Shown one piece after another: positions 1-8,544 of a stretch of 64,000 nucleotides of DNA. The notes below the pieces were generated by a model. That model saw only the letters and a program-made list of their open reading frames with translations, was not told where the DNA came from and searched no databases. Both the position numbers and the translations under genes were made by a program. Positions within the stretch are counted from its first letter, which is position 1, and the number at the start of each line of letters is the position of its first letter. This DNA is from an uncultured delta proteobacterium (GTDB taxonomy: Bacteria; Desulfobacterota; Binatia; Binatales; Binataceae), in NCBI GenBank assembly GCA_963794325.1, contig CAWCDG010000003.1, positions 384,001 through 448,000 on the forward strand, read 5' to 3'.

Positions 1-1
1 C

Positions 2-190
2 GTCGAATGGGAAGACGGGCAAGTGGGCAAGGTGAAGGGCATCGGCGTCGCGCCAAAGTTCTCGCGCACCCCGGGAAAAATCGTACGCGGATCCGTACCG
101 CTCGGCCACGACAACGATCGCATCTATCGCGAGATGCTCGGCGTCAGCGCGGACGAACTCGAATCGCTCCGCCGCGAAAAGGTGATCTAA
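2..190 (+). CDS. CaiB/BaiF class III CoA-transferase, C-terminal part (runs off window start)
   Basis: Own translation: VEWEDGQVGKVKGIGVAPKFSRTPGKIVRGSVPLGHDNDRIYREMLGVSADELESLRREKVI*; PKFSRTPG...PLG..N..IY..LG......L....VI is the typical CoA-transferase III tail. Confidence 0.8.
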   Translation, partial: VEWEDGQVGKVKGIGVAPKFSRTPGKIVRGSVPLGHDNDRIYREMLGVSADELESLRREKVI

Positions 191-1014
191 CTCGCGACTC
201 TCGTCAAGAAGGTCTCGACCGATTTCCCGAATGCCTTCTCGTCCGGATAGCGGCCCAAGTCCAAAATGAAATAGGTCGCGCCTACTTCCTGCTCGGCGGC
301 GACCTTTGCACGTGCCGCGCCGATATCGTCGAGCTTGATTCCGCGCCGCACGACAATCTCGGGAGCGTCGCGTCCAGCGGCGCGCGCACGTGAATTCAAT
401 TCTTCAACTTTTGCTTTAAGTTCTGCCGCGGGCAGCATCGGATGCCAGCCGTCGCCGAACTTCACCACGCGATTCATCGCAGCCGGCCCGCTGCCTCCCA
501 CCCAGATAGGCGGGCGGCGGGGCCTTGGCAGGAACATGAACGACGGGAACTTCACCAACGGGCCTGTGTAGGCGCCCGGCTCGTCAGCGCTGAACAGATG
601 GTGAATCACGCTCAGCGTCTCATTGGTAATCGCGCCGCGCCGGTGAATGTCGACGCCGAGCGCGTCGAACTCCGGCTTCATCCATCCGACGCCGACGCCC
701 AGGATCATTCGCTCGCCCGACAGTTCCTGGATCGTCGCGACCTGCTTCGCGGTCAACACGGCGGGCCGATAAGGAACGACCAGCACTGAAACGCCAAGCC
801 GGATTTTCTCGGTCGCCCCGGCGATGAACGCCAGTGTCGCTAGCACGTCGAGATAACGTCCGCCACTGCCTTCGGTCTGGTCGACAGGGATGCACAAATG
901 ATCCGATACAAAGAGCGCGTCGAAGCCGGCTTGCTCAGCGATTCGTGTGCATGCGCGAATCGTCGCGCGATTGGATTGCGGACCCATGTTGCGGATTGCG
1001 ACGCCAAATTTCAT
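187..1014 (-). CDS. LLM class (probably F420-dependent) oxidoreductase
   Basis: AEQAGFDALFVSDH, LGVSVLVVPYR, LGVGVGWMKPEF, PPIWVGG, GDGWHP motifs; GGAGGAG RBS. Confidence 0.9.
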   Translation of the reverse strand: MKFGVAIRNMGPQSNRATIRACTRIAEQAGFDALFVSDHLCIPVDQTEGSGGRYLDVLATLAFIAGATEKIRLGVSVLVVPYRPAVLTAKQVATIQELSGERMILGVGVGWMKPEFDALGVDIHRRGAITNETLSVIHHLFSADEPGAYTGPLVKFPSFMFLPRPRRPPIWVGGSGPAAMNRVVKFGDGWHPMLPAAELKAKVEELNSRARAAGRDAPEIVVRRGIKLDDIGAARAKVAAEQEVGATYFILDLGRYPDEKAFGKSVETFLTRVAS

Positions 1015-1109
1015 CGCTGACTCCTCCAGCTACATCACGACACTGAAAAGAAGACTGGCAAGCGCGCGCGCATCCAGTCAAACTACTCGGCCACTGGAGG
1101 CGACAACGC

Positions 1110-1742
1110 GTGGGCCGTCCATCCGCGAAGCAACGCAAGCCTTATAACCTCGACGCGATCCTCGACGTGGCGGTGCGCGTGTTTCGCGAGCGCGGCTACG
1201 ACGGCAGCACGCTCGACGACGTCGCGCGCGCCGCGGGAATCACCAAGGCCAGCATCTACTATCACGTCCGCAGCAAGGAAGAGCTGCTGGCGCGCGGCGT
1301 CGGCCGCGCGCTCGACGCGCTGTTCGCGGTGCTCGACGAGCGGCCCGCAAAGCGCGGCCGCGCGGCGGCGCGTCTCAGGTACATCGTGCACCGCACCATC
1401 GAGATCACCGTTGAGCAATTGCCCGAAGTGGCTCTCCTGCTGCGTGTGCGCGGCAATACCCCGGTCGAGCGGCGAATCATGGAACGGCGCCGCGCGTTTG
1501 ACCATCTGATCGCGAGGCTGATGCGCAACGCGCAGCGACAGGGCGATTTGCGCGCCGATATCGAGCCGCGGCTGGCGACGCGTCTGCTCTTCGGAATGCT
1601 TAACTCGATCACTGAATGGTATCGGACCGGCGGCGACCTCGATGCGCCGGAAGTGGCCGAGGCAGTTTTCCGGATTGCGTTCGAGGGAATGGAGCAGGGC
1701 GCTCAACGCCGCATTTTGACAAATCAACCAAATGGTAGGTAA
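1110..1742 (+). CDS. TetR family regulator, PaaR-like
   Basis: HTH (FRERGYDGSTLDDVARAAGITKASIYYHVRSKEEL); LLLRVRGNT.VER...ERRR.FD and LLFGMLNSITEWYR resemble actinobacterial PaaR. Confidence 0.85.
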   Translation: MGRPSAKQRKPYNLDAILDVAVRVFRERGYDGSTLDDVARAAGITKASIYYHVRSKEELLARGVGRALDALFAVLDERPAKRGRAAARLRYIVHRTIEITVEQLPEVALLLRVRGNTPVERRIMERRRAFDHLIARLMRNAQRQGDLRADIEPRLATRLLFGMLNSITEWYRTGGDLDAPEVAEAVFRIAFEGMEQGAQRRILTNQPNGR

Positions 1743-1745
1743 AAT
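1716..1745 (+). promoter_or_regulatory. sigma70-type promoter with a palindromic operator in the spacer
   Basis: TTGACA (1716-1721), 18 nt, TAAAAT (1740-1745); spacer holds CAACCAAATGGTAG (1725-1738). Confidence 0.65.
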
Positions 1746-1760
1746 AGATTCAGGTGTCAT

Positions 1761-2789
1761 ATGCCGATGAGTGAATTCGAAATCCCCGCAGGCGGCCTGG
1801 TCGAGGCGCCAGCCGTCGCCCAGCCGAATATTTTTCCGATCGAATGGCGATGCGAGACGCCTAAGCTCGCCGAGATTTACGAGCGCGCCAAGCGCGAGGG
1901 CTTCAATCCCGCGGATATCAACTGGAGCGAGCTTTTGCCCGAGGCATGGAGCGACGACCAGAAGGTCGCGATCATGTACTGGTGGGCGCTCCTTTCCAAC
2001 TTCGACTCGTCGGGGCCGGCGGTGTTCGCCCGCGCGACGATTCATGCGTGGGAGATGCACGAGGAAGATCCGGTCCGCAAATGTTTCTTCTCGATTACCC
2101 GCGACGAGACCAATCACGAGGAAACCTGCCAGCGCGTTATTCAGCGCCTGGTCCCGAACGGCCCGCAGGGCTTCACTCCCACCAGCGAACTGCAGCGCGT
2201 CGCGCTGAACAATATCGGCTGGCTCTATCATAACGGCGGCCGCTACTGGACCGGTTACAACCGCGCGATCGATCGCTATCCGCTCGCCGTCATCTTCACC
2301 TCGTTCATGATGGGCGAAGTGGCGTCGTCAACGCTGTTCCACGGCATGGCGCATGCCACGACTCATCCGGTGTTCCGCGAAATCTTCACCAAGATCGGTC
2401 GCGACGAAGCACGTCATTTGCAAATCTGCATCAACCTGCTCGAGAAGGAGTGGCCCGGCCTCACCGACGAGCACAAGACCTTCATCACCAAGCAGCTTCG
2501 CGCGGGCTTCGTGTTCCTCTCGATGGTGCTATGGGAGCCGCCCGCACAGTTCTGGGATTTGCCCGGTTACTTTCTGCATAACCACAGGATTCTGTTGCGC
2601 ACCGCGCGCGAGGCGGGACTCGGAATCCTCACCTACGAGCAACAAGCCGACAATTGGCGGCTCGCGATCGCGCGCGTCCGCAAGCTGGTCGAGCGATGGG
2701 ACATCCAGTTCCCCGCGATTCCGGAACTTGATATTGAAGGAGTTGACGTCGGCGATATCACCGCCGAAGACATCATCCCCGTGTTCTAG
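1761..2789 (+). CDS. Ferritin-like diiron protein (putative oxygenase)
   Basis: Two ExxH motifs (DETNH, DEARH), intervening MMGE and upstream NFD. Confidence 0.8.
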   Translation: MPMSEFEIPAGGLVEAPAVAQPNIFPIEWRCETPKLAEIYERAKREGFNPADINWSELLPEAWSDDQKVAIMYWWALLSNFDSSGPAVFARATIHAWEMHEEDPVRKCFFSITRDETNHEETCQRVIQRLVPNGPQGFTPTSELQRVALNNIGWLYHNGGRYWTGYNRAIDRYPLAVIFTSFMMGEVASSTLFHGMAHATTHPVFREIFTKIGRDEARHLQICINLLEKEWPGLTDEHKTFITKQLRAGFVFLSMVLWEPPAQFWDLPGYFLHNHRILLRTAREAGLGILTYEQQADNWRLAIARVRKLVERWDIQFPAIPELDIEGVDVGDITAEDIIPVF

Positions 2790-2810
2790 ATTGATTGTGA
2801 GGCCACGAAT

Positions 2811-3584
2811 ATGAGCGTCGATTTGTCGGTCGAAAGCGGTCTCGCGGAAATCGTTCTCAACCGTCCCGACAAGATGAACGCGTTGAATGACGCGATGGTC
2901 GCCGATCTCAACGGCGCTCTCGATCGCGCGGCGTCGCAAGGTGTGCGCGCCATGATGATTCGCGGCGAGGGGCCGGCATTCTGCGCAGGCCGCGATCTCG
3001 CGGACGCGCATCCAGGCGACGAAGACGCCGAAGCGATAATCGAGACAAGCTTCAATCCGCTGATGAAGCGAATCGTCGCGTTCCCCGCGCCGACCTTCGC
3101 CGCGGTTCAAGGCGCGTGCCTGGGCGCGGGCCTCGGCCTCGCACTCGGATGCGACGTCGTCTACGTCGCCGACGACGCGAAGATCGGATCGCCGTTCGCG
3201 CGAATCGGCGCAGTGCTGGACTCTGGCGGCCATTCGTTTTTCGTCTCGCGGTTGGGAGCGCATCGCGCGCTCGAGCTGATCTACACCGGACGATTGCTGT
3301 CCGGCATCGAAGCCGCGCAGCTCGGCCTTGTCAATCGCAGCATGACCAAGGATTCGCTGGTCGCGGAGACGCGCAAGATCGCGTCGCAGGTTGCGCAAGG
3401 TCCCACCGCAGCGTTCATGATGTCCAAGCATCTGGTGCGCAGGATCGATGAAGAGGCGATGGGCCTGTTCGCAGTTCTGAAGCTTGAAGCTCAAGCCCAA
3501 GGCGCGGCGGGAAGGACCGCGGACTACAAGGAAGGCATCACGGCTTTCCAACAAAAGCGCGCCGCGAAGTTCGTAGGTAAGTAG
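2811..3584 (+). CDS. Enoyl-CoA hydratase/isomerase, PaaG-like
   Basis: LNRPDKMNAL, FCAGRDL, GAGLGLALGCD, FARIGAVLDSGG: PaaG-type Asp present, both ECH Glu absent; TADYKEGITAF. Confidence 0.85.
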   Translation: MSVDLSVESGLAEIVLNRPDKMNALNDAMVADLNGALDRAASQGVRAMMIRGEGPAFCAGRDLADAHPGDEDAEAIIETSFNPLMKRIVAFPAPTFAAVQGACLGAGLGLALGCDVVYVADDAKIGSPFARIGAVLDSGGHSFFVSRLGAHRALELIYTGRLLSGIEAAQLGLVNRSMTKDSLVAETRKIASQVAQGPTAAFMMSKHLVRRIDEEAMGLFAVLKLEAQAQGAAGRTADYKEGITAFQQKRAAKFVGK

Positions 3585-3608
3585 CCAAGTCGAGCGGAGT
3601 AACAGACG

Positions 3609-3866
3609 ATGCAAGAAAAGATCAAAGTTGGATTCCAGGCTTTCGTTTCCGATGGTGGCGAGGAGTTCGGCGCGGTTCGCCAGGTTGCGCCGAACGGACG
3701 GCCCGAGCTGGTTATCTACGTCGAGAACGCCGGCGACTTCACGGTGCCGATCAGCGCCGTCGAGGCAGTGCATTCGGAGAAGGTCGTGCTGAACTGCGCC
3801 AAGCTCGATCGCAAGCTGCGGCATGCGATCGGCCACGCGCACGACAGTGAAAAGCGCGGCGCTTAG
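3609..3866 (+). CDS. Small hypothetical protein (PRC-barrel-like)
   Basis: 85 aa, GGAG RBS, beta-rich pattern (GEEFGAVRQV...FTVPISAVEAV). Confidence 0.65.
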   Translation: MQEKIKVGFQAFVSDGGEEFGAVRQVAPNGRPELVIYVENAGDFTVPISAVEAVHSEKVVLNCAKLDRKLRHAIGHAHDSEKRGA

Positions 3867-5251
3867 CCGGAGACCTGGGATAGAAGATACACAAGTCCCT
3901 CCGACATTGTTGGGTGCGCGAAGATCGCATCGCGCAACGCTGTATAAGGTAGCCGCCCAACCATCGCAGTCTGAACCGCGGCCATCAGCTCGCTCGCCTC
4001 GATACCGAACGCGGTGAAGCCGATGATTTGGTCGCTGTCTTTGCCGATCAGCATCTTCATGAAGCCGCGCGGTTCGGCAATCGTGTGCGTGCGAAGCACA
4101 TTCTCCATCGGCAATTTTGCGATACGGTATTCGATCTTGTCGCGCTTCGCCTCGGACTCGTTGCGCCCGACCCGCGCCAGTTCCGGATCGGTGAACATGC
4201 AGAACGGCACCAGGCGATCCTTCGTGGTTCGATTGCCGCCCTTCAAGTTGTCACGCACCACGCGGAAGTCGTGGTACGCGACGTGTGTGAATTGAGGACT
4301 ACCCGCGCAATCGCCCATCGCCCAAACATTGGCAGCGGTCGTCTCCAGCCGCTCGTTGACCTTGATAAAACCTCGCTCGTCGAGTTCGACGCCGGCTTGC
4401 TCCAATCCGATTCCTTTCGTATTCGGCGTGCGTCCCGTCGCCACGAGAAGATCGGTGCCTTCGATGGTCCGTTCGCCGGGACCGTCTTTTGCGTGAACCC
4501 GAACCTCCTTGCCTGATTGTCCCTCCACCCGGCAGACTTGAGTTCCGAGCAATACCTCGATTCCCTCGTCGCGAAACAGTTCAAGGAGAGCAGCCCCTAC
4601 GTCGGGATCTTCCCGGTCGGCGAGTTGCGCGCCTTGTTCAATCACGGTCACATCCGATCCGAACCGCCGTATCGCCTGCGCCAGTTCAAGCCCGATGTAA
4701 CCTCCGCCGACCACGATGAGGTGACGTGGCAGATGGTCTAGGTCGAGCACCTCGATATGCGTCATCGGGTTAGCTGCGGCGAGTCCGGGAACATTGGGTA
4801 TCGTCGAGCGCGATCCCAGATCCAGGAACACACGTTCGCCAACGACGCGTCGAGTGCCGCCATCGTTGAGCGCGACTTCAACGGTTTTCGGAGCGACGAA
4901 GCGTGCTTCACCCATGATCAGTTCTATTCCGGCGTCCGCGGTACGCTGCGCGTGGAACTGATGCTCCGCTTCGACCATCTTGCGTTTGCGCTGCTGAACG
5001 CCCGCCATGTTGATTCGGAGTTGATCCATCTCGAGTCCGAATTCCGCGCCGCGCCGCGCAATTGACGCCACTCTTGCGGAGTAGGCCACGTTCTTGCTCG
5101 GCAGGCACGCGATATTCGGGCACGAGCCGCCGAGCCATCTCCGCTCGACCATCGCCGTGCGATGGCCCTCACCGGCCATAGTCCAGGCTGTCCACTTGCC
5201 GGCTTCTCCGCTTCCTAGAACCAGAATTTGGTACTTTTCTGCGTCAGGCAT
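3863..5251 (-). CDS. Pyridine nucleotide-disulfide oxidoreductase (Lpd/MerA/RclA-like)
   Basis: GSGEAG, GGSCPNIACLPSK redox motif, GGGYIG, C-terminal HPTMSE. Confidence 0.9.
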   Translation of the reverse strand: MPDAEKYQILVLGSGEAGKWTAWTMAGEGHRTAMVERRWLGGSCPNIACLPSKNVAYSARVASIARRGAEFGLEMDQLRINMAGVQQRKRKMVEAEHQFHAQRTADAGIELIMGEARFVAPKTVEVALNDGGTRRVVGERVFLDLGSRSTIPNVPGLAAANPMTHIEVLDLDHLPRHLIVVGGGYIGLELAQAIRRFGSDVTVIEQGAQLADREDPDVGAALLELFRDEGIEVLLGTQVCRVEGQSGKEVRVHAKDGPGERTIEGTDLLVATGRTPNTKGIGLEQAGVELDERGFIKVNERLETTAANVWAMGDCAGSPQFTHVAYHDFRVVRDNLKGGNRTTKDRLVPFCMFTDPELARVGRNESEAKRDKIEYRIAKLPMENVLRTHTIAEPRGFMKMLIGKDSDQIIGFTAFGIEASELMAAVQTAMVGRLPYTALRDAIFAHPTMSEGLVYLLSQVSG

Positions 5252-5360
5252 TGTCCCATCTCCTTACTAATGATCATGGGTTTGTCTAACTATGAGAGGT
5301 TCTCCATCACCTTTGCCGCATTCACTGTAAAGGCGGTGCATCGTTGTGGAAACTCAGAAA

Positions 5361-5404
5361 CCTAACCCCTAACCCCTTCCCATAGTGGGAAGGGGAACAA
5401 TCGC
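5361..5404. repeat. REP-like family A copy
   Basis: CCTAACCCCTAACCCCTTCCC-ATAGT-GGGAAGGGGAACAATCGC. Confidence 0.9.
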
Positions 5405-5417
5405 ACAGGGGAGTCGG

Positions 5418-6533
5418 TTAGCGGGCGGCGGCTGATGACGGAATCGGAACCGGATCCTTGAGCGGCTCCGTGTTCCACTTCTTGAGTTCGGGCAGCACAT
5501 ACTTCGCGAAGCACTTGATGCTGCGTTCGGCGTCTTCGTACGGCATTCCGCCGAAACTGAAATTGAAGAACACGCCGTTGGCGTCGATCGTGTCGCGGAC
5601 GAACGCGCACTTCTCGATCACCTGGTCGGGCGTGCCCCACGGCATCAGCATCGCGAAGTCGCGCGCGGCAACCTCCGGACCGGTCTTCTTTATGAACTTG
5701 CTTACGTTGCTGTAGAACTCGTAGCCCTTCTTGGTGCCGAAATCCGGCGACGTCATCTCGTAGTGCTTCATGACGGTGTGGTAGTTGGCGGCGATCCATT
5801 TCATCGCGAGCTCTTCGGCGCGGTCCTTGTTTTCATCGACGACGCAGAAGCCGCCGGAAAGCGGCTTGGGTATTGGCGCCGCCCCGTTAACCTCACGCCA
5901 GACCTTGTGATAGACCTCGAAATCCTTCTTGACGGCGTCCCACGGTTTTTGCGGAATCACGAGCAGGCCGACCCCAAGCTTCGCCATTATCGGCATCGAT
6001 TCGGGCGAGACTGCGGCGGCGTAGGTGCGGCCCTTGAATGAGCGCGCGGGGCGCGGACGAATCTCGCGGCGCGGCTGGCGGGTGAATTTGCCGCCTTCCA
6101 TGTAGCCGTTTTCGAGCGCGTTCAAAACCAGCTCAGCGTACTCGACAAACAGGTTGCGGCCTTCGTTCTGATCGATACGGAAGCCGTCGTATTCGATTCG
6201 CGCGAGGCCGCGACCGAGGCCGAGGATCACGCGGCCGTTGGAGACGTGATCGAGCAGCGCGACCTGCTCGGCGACGCGGATGGGATCGTGCCACGGCAGG
6301 ACGACGACGCCCGAGCCGAGCTTTATGTGCGTGGTGCGGCCCGCCATGTACGAGAGGAATTGCAGCACGTCGGGGCACATCGTGTAGTCGTCGAAGTGAT
6401 GCTCGACGCCCCAGATAGAATCGAAGCCCAGCGGCTCGGCCATTTCGGCGAGGCGCAACTCGTTGCGATAAACCTCGGCGTCGGGAAGTGCGTTATCGGG
6501 ATTCTGGAATACTGCGCCATAGCCAACGTGCAT
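5418..6533 (-). CDS. LLM class flavin-dependent oxidoreductase
   Basis: AEPLGFDSIWGVEHHF, PIRVAEQVALLD, LGLGRG; start reassigned to ATG 6533 behind GAGGAGG. Confidence 0.9.
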   Translation of the reverse strand: MHVGYGAVFQNPDNALPDAEVYRNELRLAEMAEPLGFDSIWGVEHHFDDYTMCPDVLQFLSYMAGRTTHIKLGSGVVVLPWHDPIRVAEQVALLDHVSNGRVILGLGRGLARIEYDGFRIDQNEGRNLFVEYAELVLNALENGYMEGGKFTRQPRREIRPRPARSFKGRTYAAAVSPESMPIMAKLGVGLLVIPQKPWDAVKKDFEVYHKVWREVNGAAPIPKPLSGGFCVVDENKDRAEELAMKWIAANYHTVMKHYEMTSPDFGTKKGYEFYSNVSKFIKKTGPEVAARDFAMLMPWGTPDQVIEKCAFVRDTIDANGVFFNFSFGGMPYEDAERSIKCFAKYVLPELKKWNTEPLKDPVPIPSSAAAR

Positions 6534-6644
6534 GATAAGAACCTCCTCGATCGAATCGCCGAGCTTAGGACAGTCATAGATCGGGCAAGTATAGAAGTAC
6601 AGGTCGTCGCGATCGGCTTTTCCCAGTTTCGCGATCGTGCTCAA

Positions 6645-7742
6645 ATGCGCGGTGTGCCCAACGCCGACGCGACCAGAACCGCGAGCAACCCTCAACCTTC
6701 CACCCCGCAAGCTGTGGTGATGGGGCCGACGGCGGCGTCGCTGTTCCTGGTCGTTACGATTGATCCGCGCCCTGAAAGCGTGACAGCAGTCCGCTCGCTC
6801 TGCGCCGACTTAGCCAACCTGCTGCGCGCAGTTGGGTTCCGCGATACCGCGGCAAAGCTTACCTGCGTGATGAGCTTTGGCTCCGCGGCGTGGGATCGGC
6901 TGTTCGGAGAGCCCCGCCCGGCGGAACTCCATCCGTTCCGGGAGATCAGCGCCGGATCGCGGCACGCAGTATCGACGCCGGGCGACGTGCTTTTCCACAT
7001 CCGCGCCGAGCGGACGGATCTCTGTTTCGAACTCGCCACGCAGATCATGTCCGCACTCGGCGACTCGGTTACCGTCGAAGACGAAGTCCACGCCTTCCGC
7101 TATTTTGACAATCGCGATCTGCTCGGCTTCGTGGATGGCACCGAGAACCCGGTCGATAACGAGGCGCTCGAGGCCGCGCTGGTCGGCGAAGACGATCCAG
7201 CCTTTGCCGGCGGCAGTTACGTGATCGTTCAGAAGTATCTGCACGATCTCATGGGATGGAACGCGTTGCAGACCGAAGTCCAGGAGCGGATCATCGGCCG
7301 CACCAAGGTTTCGGATATCGAATTGGACGACACCGTCAAACCGACCTCCGCGCACAACGCGCTTAACACCATCGTTGAAGATGGGGTCGAGAAGAAGATC
7401 TTCCGCGCCAACGGGATCTTCGGCCGCCCGGGACAGACCGAGTTCGGTACGTACTTCATCGGTTACGCGCGCTCGCCGCGGACGATGGAGCAAATGCTCC
7501 AGAACATGTTCGTGGGACAGCCCCCGGGCAATTACGATCGAATACTGGACTTCAGCCGCGCCGTCACCGGCAGTTTGTTCTTCGCGCCGCCGGCATCGTT
7601 CCTCGACAGCGTAACGCCCACCGGCGAAGTGGCAGCGGCCGCACCCGCCGCCAATCAGACCGGCTCTTCGCCAGATACCCCGCTTGCCAGCGACGGCTCG
7701 CTCGGCATCGGCTCACTGAAAGGAGAATCGCGCGATGAATAA
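6645..7742 (+). CDS. dyp: Dye-decolorizing (DyP-type) peroxidase, encapsulin cargo
   Basis: GFVDGTEN, QKYLHDL, proximal His in TSAH, GTYFIGY; C-terminal DGSLGIGSLKG cargo-loading peptide; start approximate. Confidence 0.93.
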   Translation: MRGVPNADATRTASNPQPSTPQAVVMGPTAASLFLVVTIDPRPESVTAVRSLCADLANLLRAVGFRDTAAKLTCVMSFGSAAWDRLFGEPRPAELHPFREISAGSRHAVSTPGDVLFHIRAERTDLCFELATQIMSALGDSVTVEDEVHAFRYFDNRDLLGFVDGTENPVDNEALEAALVGEDDPAFAGGSYVIVQKYLHDLMGWNALQTEVQERIIGRTKVSDIELDDTVKPTSAHNALNTIVEDGVEKKIFRANGIFGRPGQTEFGTYFIGYARSPRTMEQMLQNMFVGQPPGNYDRILDFSRAVTGSLFFAPPASFLDSVTPTGEVAAAAPAANQTGSSPDTPLASDGSLGIGSLKGESRDE

Positions 7743-8544
7743 TCTGCACCGCGAGCTCGCCCCCATCTCGGACGGCGCGTGGGCTCAAATCGAAGAAGAA
7801 GCGCAGCGCACCCTGAAACGCTACCTGGCAGGGCGTCGGGTCGTCGACGTGAAAGGTCCGGGCGGCGTCATGCTGTCTGCGGTCGGTACCGGGCATTTGC
7901 GCGATCTGGCGGCTCCCGGCGACGGCATCATTGCGCGGCAACGTCAGGTCAAGGCGCTGGTCGAACTCCGCGCTCGATTCCAACTCGATCGGCAGGCGAT
8001 CGACGACGTCGATCGCGGCGCAAATGATGCGGACTGGCAGCCGTTGAAAGATGCGGCGAAGCGGATAGCGTTCACCGAAGACCGCGCGATCTTCGACGGG
8101 TACGCCGCCGCCGGAATCGAAGGCATTCGGCAAGGGACCAGCAACAAAATCGCGGCGCTGCCCATAGACCCGGCTCATTATCCCGACGCTGTCGCCGAGG
8201 CGCTGAGCCAGCTGCGCCTCGCCGGCGTCAACGGGCCGTATTCGGTGGTGATGGGCGCCGACGCGTACACGGCGCTGAGCGAGGCCAGCGATCACGGCTA
8301 TCCTGTAATCGAGCACATACAGCGGCTGGTCAACGACGAAATCATTTTCGCTTCCGCGCTCGCTGGAGCGTTCGTATTGACGACGCGCGGCGGCGACTTC
8401 GAACTTCATCTCGGCCAGGACGTCTCGATCGGCTATGCGAGCCACGACGATAAGCACGTCAGCCTGTACCTGCAGGAATCGATGACCTTCTTGCTGTTGA
8501 CGGCTGAAGCCTCGGTCGCGCTCAAGCCCGCATCGCGGAAATAG
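7735..8544 (+). CDS. Family 1 encapsulin shell protein (linocin M18 type)
   Basis: MNNLHRELAPISDGAWAQIEEEA..TLKRYLAGRRVVDV; GGDFELHLGQDVSIGY; 8-nt overlap with dyp. Confidence 0.96.
   Translation: MNNLHRELAPISDGAWAQIEEEAQRTLKRYLAGRRVVDVKGPGGVMLSAVGTGHLRDLAAPGDGIIARQRQVKALVELRARFQLDRQAIDDVDRGANDADWQPLKDAAKRIAFTEDRAIFDGYAAAGIEGIRQGTSNKIAALPIDPAHYPDAVAEALSQLRLAGVNGPYSVVMGADAYTALSEASDHGYPVIEHIQRLVNDEIIFASALAGAFVLTTRGGDFELHLGQDVSIGYASHDDKHVSLYLQESMTFLLLTAEASVALKPASRK

Follow-up and report, generated by a model that had tools for sequence, protein, structure and literature searches.

A family of single-gene R2-like diiron proteins linked to CoA-dependent aromatic acid catabolism, with a PaaG-like crotonase partner in Binataceae

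The phenylacetate hybrid pathway serves as a central funnel in the breakdown of aromatic compounds, and genome surveys take PaaA and PaaC as its markers. Phenylacetyl-CoA 1,2-epoxidase, PaaABC(D)E, has a ferritin-fold diiron-carboxylate centre with PaaA as the catalytic diiron subunit, needs an NAD(P)H-linked iron-sulfur flavoprotein, and is encoded in operons with PaaG, PaaI, PaaK, PaaJ, PaaZ and PaaX. In the benzoyl-CoA 2,3-epoxidase BoxAB, a single diiron subunit acts on the aryl-CoA, and a crotonase-fold protein, BoxC, then handles the epoxide. The locus described here lies in a 64,000-nucleotide stretch of DNA, referred to as the window, from the genome of an uncultured member of the Binataceae (G000; 4.45 Mb in 10 contigs, 85% complete); the relatives nearest to the locus carry the name Candidatus Binatus in the species-genome collection. 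It is a short operon encoding a TetR-family regulator, a 342-residue diiron-carboxylate protein of an unnamed family and a PaaG-like crotonase-fold protein (ECH), with coordinates collected in Table 1. The diiron family is tied to paa-type CoA-dependent aromatic acid catabolism. With evenly balanced confidence, its members are read as homodimeric R2-like oxygenases of an aryl-acyl-CoA ring that work with the PaaG-like isomerase, a phenylacetyl-CoA-type ester being the likeliest substrate and epoxidation the likeliest reaction.

The family shares with PaaABC(D)E the type of metal centre, the operon company and, in one of its two clades (clade B, described below), an iron-sulfur flavoprotein encoded next door. 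It differs in having no detectable sequence relation to the PaaA/PaaC models (PF05138, TIGR02156) and a fold similarity to PaaC of just Z 14.9, and in being a single gene whose product is modelled as a homodimer, whereas the Paa enzyme is an A/C heterodimer with B and D. Unlike PaaE, the clade-B reductase has the BenC/MmoC domain order, and the window's clade has no adjacent reductase. BoxB, of about 470 residues, is likewise unrelated in sequence to the diiron family, and BoxC (550 residues) contrasts with the 257-residue, PaaG-like crotonase of the window. The best structural matches are R2lox and the class I ribonucleotide reductase (RNR) subunit R2 (4hr0_A and 2uw2_A), and a homodimer similar to theirs is predicted for the diiron protein. 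Sequence identity to these proteins is only 9-17%, the gene neighbourhood is a different one, and the diiron family has a conserved cysteine (C123), not a tyrosine, four residues after the first histidine ligand (H119), a position that presumably corresponds to that of the R2 radical tyrosine. R2lox itself carries a Mn/Fe cofactor, a Tyr-Val ether cross-link and a bound fatty-acid ligand. The AurF/CmlI arylamine N-oxygenases (PF11583) are the sole Pfam family near threshold, and public pipelines sometimes call members of the diiron family 'diiron oxygenase' or 'AurF'. The score of 25.3 bits over residues 176-266 only, against a gathering threshold of 29.6, leaves the protein outside that family; the fold Z is 14.9 and the diiron family has no biosynthetic context.

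The two ExxH motifs that a first-pass annotation of the window had pointed out in this ferritin-like protein are E116xxH119 and E216xxH219. The columns of D/E82, E116, H119, E186, E216 and H219 are each kept in 26-27 of 28 aligned family members, and this carboxylate/ExxH/carboxylate/ExxH ligand set together with a four-helix core places the protein in the ferritin-like diiron-carboxylate superfamily. It passes no curated family cut-off in Pfam or NCBIfam. Pfam Rubrerythrin scores 20.1 bits against a cut-off of 22.8, and the sole NCBIfam match is to encapsulin-associated ferritin at 16.9 bits. The protein gave no match to PF05138 or TIGR02156 at E ≤ 0.01 (a genome-wide PF05138 search also missed the gene) or to BoxB (TIGR03225, cut-off 499.1 bits), and a sequence search of the PDB produced nothing better than E = 1. 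The profile searches thus agree with the first-pass annotation, which could not recognise the protein as PaaA, PaaC or BoxB, and with AurF subthreshold they assign it to none of the characterised non-epoxidase families that would have spoken against its reading. A word-indexed search returned 641 proteins, the best 120 of which are 66-98% identical; among the matches listed, the names, where given, are 'hypothetical protein' or 'rubrerythrin'. There are 513 loci of the family in the species-genome collection, and the family is compact, as judged from the small number of matches (234 at E ≤ 0.001) among 1.84 billion 50%-cluster representatives.

The AlphaFold model of the diiron protein is helical, with a predicted local distance difference test score (pLDDT) of 91.9 and a predicted template modelling score (pTM) of 0.89. 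The top structural match is R2lox 4hr0_A (Z 18.9, root-mean-square deviation 3.3 Å over 263 residues), which Foldseek also finds (E 1.4e-4); further matches are the ADO-like 6d9f_A (Z 18.8), human RNR R2 2uw2_A (Z 18.6), PaaC 3pvr_B (Z 14.9), AurF (Z 14.9) and BoxB (Z 14.2). Going by entry titles, every match with Z > 13 is a diiron-carboxylate or R2-type protein. The modelled fold puts the protein in the R2-like branch of the diiron-carboxylate proteins, fold values of this kind assigning no function. A two-copy model reached an ipSAE of 0.89 in three of three runs, with at least 92% shared contacts and a partner pLDDT of at least 89, and the best of three controls gave 0.00. In calibration, 20 of 30 proteins solved as pairs passed the mark used for homodimers, as did one of 23 solved as single chains, and the present pass may be due to likeness to solved R2 dimers. 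A C-terminal tail, I315-FPAIPE...G327...DIIPVF342 (residues 315-342, window 2700-2789), lies outside the helical core and is at least 90% conserved in both clades. R2 proteins bind their large subunit via the C-terminus, and the tail may be a docking peptide for a partner.

For the crotonase, the top NCBIfam model is PaaG (TIGR02280) at 190.2 bits, short of the cut-off of 345.15. This cut-off is strict: it was passed in none of 14 control genomes, and the genes in the PaaG position of loci L120 and L121 score just 304 and 296 bits. In alignment with the true hydratase 5zai, G109 and F129 occupy the positions of the two catalytic glutamates, and D137 (VLDSGG) aligns with the aspartate of IPDCGG in E. 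coli PaaG (4fzw_C). Because of these correspondences the aligned sequence of ECH has the PaaG catalytic pattern, with the aspartate present and the glutamate pair absent, as the first-pass annotation had read it. The regulator belongs to the TetR_C_24 group, and its best solved relative is Streptomyces SCO3833 (2iai; 207.8 bits). It scores 72.8 bits with the Thermus TetR-family regulator 3vpr, which we take to be PfmR and not PaaR. Library searches turned up no PaaR model for it; the best NCBIfam model is the Bacillus-type FadR (67.4 bits, below cut-off). The spacers between the four plus-strand genes (TetR, diiron, ECH and an 85-residue open reading frame (ORF)) are 18, 21 and 24 nt, and a purine-rich Shine-Dalgarno-like stretch precedes each gene after these spacers.

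The pairing of the diiron gene with ECH is conserved among related loci (L001-L066, with diiron genes 72-99% identical to that of the window; counts cover loci with room for the neighbour). In 63 of 64 loci ECH is the next gene downstream, which takes the pairing far beyond chance. The TetR gene immediately precedes the diiron gene in 49 of 64 Binataceae-type loci, a gene for an F420-dependent LLM-class oxidoreductase is syntenic in 52 of 60, and an orthologue of the neighbouring family III CoA-transferase (64-93% identity) occupies the same place in 42 of 57. The diiron family was found in 87 of 121 sampled Binataceae genomes, five of these positives being flagged unpublished, and in 60 of the 76 genomes of high quality. 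A 151-genome sample of the window's phylum, which holds just four genomes of the same class and gave the family in the window's own genome alone, says little.

The whole of the window's own genome, at 85% completeness, holds no PaaB, PaaZ or BoxA over cut-off, the best BoxA match being 30.3 bits. The full paaABCE set elsewhere in the genome that, according to the first-pass annotation, could have accounted for the PaaR- and PaaG-like genes is likewise missing: no canonical set is present there or in any of the 121 Binataceae genomes. BoxB (about 838.5 bits) and BoxC (889.9 bits) are encoded at G000:C4:236430-239527 (L143 8431-11528, minus strand), so that benzoyl-CoA is already provided for; only one other gene matches BoxB, at 21.7 bits. 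Since BoxB is present and BoxA does not reach its cut-off, a second diiron aryl-CoA epoxidase of this genome is likewise without a dedicated reductase gene. This fits the earlier proposal of a reductase encoded elsewhere, as does the distribution of reductase genes in the family, adjacent in clade B and never so in clade A. The genome also encodes two stand-alone PaaA-like proteins of 246 and 252 residues (86.5 and 46.6 bits, with the cut-off at 280), at G000:C3:147320-152133 (L084 5321-10134) and G000:C4:727586-728344; the string around the first runs F420 LLM, PaaA-like, TetR, aryl-acid CoA ligase, CADD-like. PaaA-like ORFs of 78-98 bits occur in six Eremiobacterota genomes (G104, G126, G142, G170, G175 and G198), all six of which hold the diiron family.

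A quick tree, built with every fourth of loci L001-L066 and without L076 and L077 (duplicates of L118 and L119), separated the family into two sister clades, with SH-aLRT values of 98 (clade A), 100 (clade B) and 97 (both together), and with long outgroup branches. Clade A comprises the window, Binataceae, Eremiobacterota and Actinomycetota, and clade B shares 49% identity with the window protein. At least 90% conservation in both clades is seen at 113 of the 342 positions, including all ligands and their neighbours; 43 more positions are conserved yet different between the clades, mostly conservatively.

Outside Binataceae, clade A is linked to PHENYLACETATE genes. Among 201 sampled Eremiobacterota genomes, 20 hold the diiron family and 15 hold PaaA over the cut-off (one of these unpublished; in a sixteenth genome PaaA is cut by a contig end), and none holds both. 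Full-length PaaZ is encoded in 17 of the 201. Thirteen of these are PaaA genomes, the one whose PaaA is truncated at a contig end included, and PaaZ and PaaA are immediate neighbours in all 12 genomes for which both places are listed; the remaining four PaaZ genes lie 1.4-5 kb from the diiron family (G002, G068, G060 and G156). In four more diiron-family Eremiobacterota genomes a PaaZ-like gene with only the aldehyde dehydrogenase (ALDH) part is found elsewhere. In G002 and G068, which have no PaaA and whose contigs with the diiron gene measure 384 and 135 kb, the PaaZ proteins score 1029 and 1011 bits (cut-off 562.8) and are encoded 1.4 kb from the diiron gene; an E1-alpha-like gene and PaaZ are divergent from the diiron gene, a PaaK-like ligase gene and PaaI, with an ammonium-transporter gene between diiron gene and ligase in G068. 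The PaaI of G002 scores 142 bits against a cut-off of 118.9, and that of G068 is PaaI-like by tblastn only (44% identity). A PaaI-like thioesterase is encoded in 15 of the 17 Eremiobacterota clade-A loci. A lone gene resembling that of pyruvate dehydrogenase E1-alpha (about 300 bits with TIGR03181, below cut-off) also occurs in 15 of the 17 (among L067-L079 and L118-L136); it directly abuts PaaZ in G002 and G068, and no E1-beta gene was seen next to it.

An orthologue of the TetR regulator (52-61% identity) accompanies clade A in Eremiobacterota and Actinomycetota. The actinomycetotal locus L074 has the order FAD ring-hydroxylase, TetR, diiron gene, PaaZ, two small ORFs and ECH; its diiron protein and ECH are 71% and 62% identical to those of the window, its PaaZ scores 989 bits, and its genome contains no PF05138 match. 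In L080 the diiron gene follows genes for 4-hydroxyphenylpyruvate dioxygenase (428.6 bits) and a homogentisate-dioxygenase-like protein, in a genome that has canonical PaaA and PaaC.

In clade B, for which 80 loci of metagenomes with flanks of 10 kb were counted, the diiron gene is followed in 69 loci by a BenC/MmoC-type reductase with 2Fe-2S, FAD and NAD domains, and the other 11 contigs end within 800 bp. The reductase is thus obligatory in this clade, which marks the diiron family as an O2-activating oxygenase. Genes of the paa pathway are present in 54 of the 80 loci (PaaN 40, PaaG 34, PaaK 32, PaaI 29, PaaH 28, PaaJ 28, PaaX 27 and PaaZ 0). With these, linkage to paa genes extends over three phyla, contrary to the lack of linkage that the first-pass annotation had named as grounds for rejecting its proposal. 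Cultured Castellaniella, Hydrogenophilus, Tepidiphilus, Marinobacter, Denitromonas, Azospirillum and Caenispirillum carry clade-B members, under generic names throughout. The operon of G060 and G156 runs diiron-reductase-PaaG-PaaI-PaaK-PaaJ-PaaZ with PaaX alongside, and neither genome yielded PaaA; PaaK, PaaI, PaaJ, PaaZ and PaaX are over their cut-offs where scored, the thiolase of G060 and the PaaI of G156 being found by tblastn only. In G511, on a contig of 2.16 Mb, the operon reads diiron-HADH-ECH-ECH-(210-residue ORF)-PaaI-thiolase with the reductase divergent, and the genome has no PaaA/PaaC-family match. The string in G558 (L224) is reductase-diiron-ECH-(stand-alone PaaZ-type MaoC domain)-(ECH)-CoA ligase, the second ECH being 54% identical to that of the window. 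The free-standing 154-residue MaoC hydratase between the two crotonases (L224 10869-11333) corresponds to the PaaZ C-terminal domain only (positions 523-662, 110.5 bits) and might represent the oxepin-CoA hydrolase in split form. Amidohydro_2 genes adjoin clade-B genes without paa neighbours in L132 (G144) and L138 (G135).

Taken over both clades, the diiron family heads or joins operons that are complete but for the epoxidase in at least six genomes of two phyla. Of the single functions that would suit every context of the family, ring oxygenation is the most economical, a judgement in which belief and doubt weigh the same. In the mechanism proposed here, an aromatic acid would be loaded onto CoA, in the window maybe by the neighbouring family III CoA-transferase and in other phyla by PaaK-like or FadD-like ligases. 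The predicted diiron site (D82, E116, H119, E186, E216 and H219) would be reduced by a ferredoxin or reductase encoded elsewhere, would activate O2 and would oxygenate the ring, the step done elsewhere by PaaABC(D)E. The PaaG-like crotonase, with D137 and without the catalytic glutamates, would isomerise the reactive epoxide to an oxepin-type CoA ester, and the TetR repressor would sense the CoA ester. One candidate enzyme for a later step of the Binataceae route is the F420-dependent LLM oxidoreductase encoded in synteny. Substrate, reaction and electron donor enter this scheme by inference, while the genes, motifs, fold, synteny and paa link are observed.

Several observations weigh against ring epoxidation by this family. 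Canonical PaaA is also encoded in 12 of the 80 clade-B loci. L212 has the string PaaF-G-H-I-J-K-diiron-reductase-(106 residues)-PaaA-B-C-(D)-E, in which PaaA scores 546 and PaaE 478 bits; L213 likewise joins PaaK-diiron-reductase-(106 residues)-PaaA-B-C-(D)-E into a single string; PaaE-C-B-A and diiron-reductase-PaaX are arranged divergently in L154-L156; and two tested genomes, G004 and G566, hold both the diiron family and a PaaABCDE system. An isofunctional enzyme within one operon is unexpected. The diiron proteins of G060 and G156 are 86% identical to a Castellaniella protein, and these contigs may therefore be transferred or mis-binned. Most genomes compared are metagenome-assembled genomes of unknown completeness, and an anticorrelation between related genomes does not count as independent evidence. 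Neither PaaZ nor PaaA was found in any of the 121 sampled Binataceae genomes, and the window's own genome, at 85% completeness, yielded no PaaN over its cut-off; therefore the pathway after the isomerase differs from the known one. The same genome has no true PaaK, the sole PaaK-like gene scoring 258.6 against 646.3 bits, and no homologue of the clade-B reductase was found in it. In a genome search the window's ECH ranks only third among the PaaG-like genes (189.6 bits, against 298.7 and 220.7). An Amidohydro_2 gene adjoins the best of these (298.7 bits), at G000:C7:111900-113734. For the regulator, LLLRVRGNT and LLFGMLNSITEWY, the signatures cited in the first-pass annotation, are both present, and the best solved relatives, SCO3833 and 3vpr, lend no support to its label 'PaaR-like'.

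These points divide the first-pass annotation's proposal of an aryl-CoA epoxidase/isomerase module. The paa linkage and the lack of a known family for the diiron protein support the module, and it is not a general alternative to PaaABCE, both systems being present in 12 of 80 clade-B loci and in some of these in one operon; nor do Binataceae supply PaaZ. The predicted anticorrelation with PaaABCE holds in Eremiobacterota, where none of 201 genomes has both, and fails in those same 12 loci. Where PaaABCDE coexists, the diiron family would act as an isoenzyme or on a shifted range of substrates.

Co-occurrence with a full PaaABCDE, beside clade B in 12 of 80 loci and in one operon in L212 and L213, is better explained if the diiron protein is an accessory two-electron oxygenase of the paa pathway and not a ring epoxidase, an explanation we consider unlikely though the best placed of the rivals. 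Candidate tasks are the hydroxylation of substituted phenylacetyl-CoAs, the clearing of a dead-end shunt product bound to CoA, or, in clusters of the PaaN type, the ring-opening step that is otherwise missing. In favour of the last, the ALDH-only PaaN is encoded in the same locus in 40 of 80 clade-B loci, commonly divergent from the diiron gene, and PMC9007349 says that PaaN-type clusters have no known oxepin-CoA hydrolase; a ring-opening role is a misfit with the loci in which the diiron gene adjoins full-length PaaZ or a PaaZ-type MaoC domain. PaaX, present in 27 of 80 clade-B loci and mostly right after the reductase, and PaaI, a hydroxyphenylacetyl-CoA thioesterase according to its NCBIfam name and the commonest clade-A neighbour (15 of 17 loci), also suit an accessory enzyme. 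However, the PaaA-less genomes G002, G068, G001, G511, G060 and G156, with their PaaZ, PaaG-like, PaaK and PaaJ genes, would then have no epoxidase.

The rest of the paa pathway is missing in Binataceae (no PaaZ, no PaaA), which raises the question of whether the module there is aromatic at all. It could consist of a diiron desaturase or hydroxylase of an aliphatic or alicyclic acyl-CoA, comparable to the acyl-ACP desaturases, R2lox or ADO-type enzymes, together with a delta3,delta2-enoyl-CoA-type isomerase and a FadR-like, acyl-CoA-sensing TetR. The nearest folds are the lipid-binding R2lox (Z 18.9) and the ADO-like protein (Z 18.8), ahead of PaaC at 14.9 and BoxB at 14.2, although the Z values of ferritin-like diiron proteins lie close together and assign no function. 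A neighbouring Atlas cluster at 0.94 is labelled fatty-acid desaturase, the TetR has the Bacillus-type FadR as its best NCBIfam model, albeit below cut-off, and the ligases of L224 and L225 are FadD-like and not PaaK. However, orthologues at 65-71% identity with the same TetR adjoin PaaZ, PaaI and PaaK-like genes or, in L080, 4-hydroxyphenylpyruvate dioxygenase, and ECH of the window's type keeps company with PaaZ or a MaoC domain of PaaZ type. A non-aromatic role is judged improbable, more so than the accessory one. That the protein stores iron or detoxifies peroxide as a ferritin/rubrerythrin-like protein, or is an R2-type subunit that generates a radical, as suggested by the sources' labels 'rubrerythrin' and 'ferritin-like domain-containing protein', by the weak Rubrerythrin (20.1 bits) and encapsulin-ferritin (16.9 bits) matches and by R2 proteins among the best fold matches, is very improbable given that those profile matches are all below cut-off, that storage or peroxidase activity is a misfit with the 342-residue R2-like architecture, the clade-B reductase partner (69 of 80 loci) and the constant CoA-ester-enzyme neighbours, and that the residue four positions after H119 is the conserved C123 and not a tyrosine.

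For ring oxygenation by the diiron family, a wider proposition can be formulated, which is tentative and as a whole rather doubtful. It holds that the members are a new family of single-subunit homodimeric diiron aryl-CoA ring epoxidases that would replace PaaABCDE in Eremiobacterota, Actinomycetota and Binatota, would double it in many Proteobacteria, and in Binataceae would feed a PaaZ-independent, possibly F420-linked oxepin- or epoxide-CoA route that nearly all of this widespread soil lineage would share.

Table 1 Genes of window positions 1-8544.
Feature	Position	Strand	Details
Family III CoA-transferase gene, 3' end	1..190	+	426 aa; whole gene G000:C3:382910-384190; PF02515 CoA_transf_3 314.6 bits
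F420-dependent LLM-class oxidoreductase	187..1014	-	275 aa; TIGR03619 218.6 bits, above the cut-off of 166.9; divergent from the TetR operon
TetR-family regulator, first gene of the operon	1110..1742	+	210 aa; TetR_N 61.4 bits, TetR_C_24 81.9 bits
Ferritin-fold diiron-carboxylate protein, unnamed family, clade A	1761..2789	+	342 aa; predicted ligands D82, E116, H119, E186, E216, H219
PaaG-like crotonase-fold isomerase candidate (ECH)	2811..3584	+	257 aa; ECH_1 181.2 bits
85-aa ORF, peripheral member at most	3609..3866	+	no Pfam/NCBIfam match; 24 nt after the ECH gene
Pyridine-nucleotide-disulfide (PNDR-type, RclA/MerA-like FAD) oxidoreductase, convergent	3863..5251	-	NF004992 428.8 bits, below cut-off
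Second luciferase-like monooxygenase	5418..6710	-	430 aa
DyP-type peroxidase	6246..7742	+	Dyp_perox_N and _C matches
Encapsulin shell gene	7735..8544	+	Linocin_M18 323.2 bits; directly after the DyP-type peroxidase

As had been noted from the sequence, a class III CoA-transferase lies at the edge of the window (the 3' end of a CoA_transf_3 gene), and neither paaB/E nor boxA is found beside the operon. The 85-residue ORF is shared (64-96% identity) only with the closest relatives, whose diiron genes are 91-99% identical, is often displaced there, and is not present in the more distant Binataceae loci compared. Inverted repeats occupy positions 1015-1108, in the spacer between the LLM and TetR genes. 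A sigma-70-like site at 1716-1745 (11/12) overlaps the TetR stop codon and would leave no space for a ribosome site; it is not relied on. Two candidate electron donors were set aside: the PNDR-type flavoprotein, which is syntenic in just five of 80 related loci, and F420H2 as a direct reductant of the diiron site, because LLM enzymes transfer hydride. A cofD homologue for F420 biosynthesis lies at G000:C3:165549-166459 in three frames of 176.9, 75.4 and 25.9 bits (sum about 278), which suggests frameshifts, either real or from indel errors of the assembly. The DyP-type peroxidase ends in DGSLGIGSLKGESRDE, which we take to resemble a cargo-loading tail for encapsulin; the start of its ORF at 6246 probably lies too far upstream, because it overlaps the luciferase-like monooxygenase gene on the opposite strand.

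In the literature searched, no published description of the diiron family as a phenylacetate or aryl-CoA oxygenase was found, nor anything that links Binatota with phenylacetate. A 2026 survey retained only ligases co-localised with PaaABCDE and, in its available part, names no other oxygenase (PMC13186573). PMC9007349 reports an alternative oxepin-CoA hydrolase of crotonase type and gives the hydrolase of PaaN/PacL-type clusters as unknown at the time.

The diiron proteins form an undescribed family within a known superfamily; their role in aryl-CoA ring attack is well-founded but unproven, and their pathway context in the window's lineage is unexplained. The occurrence of members in cultured Castellaniella, Marinobacter, Azospirillum, Tepidiphilus and Hydrogenophilus makes the idea directly testable. 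If the family is a second kind of aryl-CoA ring oxygenase, surveys based on PaaA and PaaC overlook whole lineages, and the 'incomplete' paa clusters of many genomes would be explained. It would also open CoA-dependent dearomatisation to study and engineering through a far simpler enzyme of one or two genes. For the Binataceae, abundant uncultured soil bacteria, the diiron module points to an unknown route after epoxidation.

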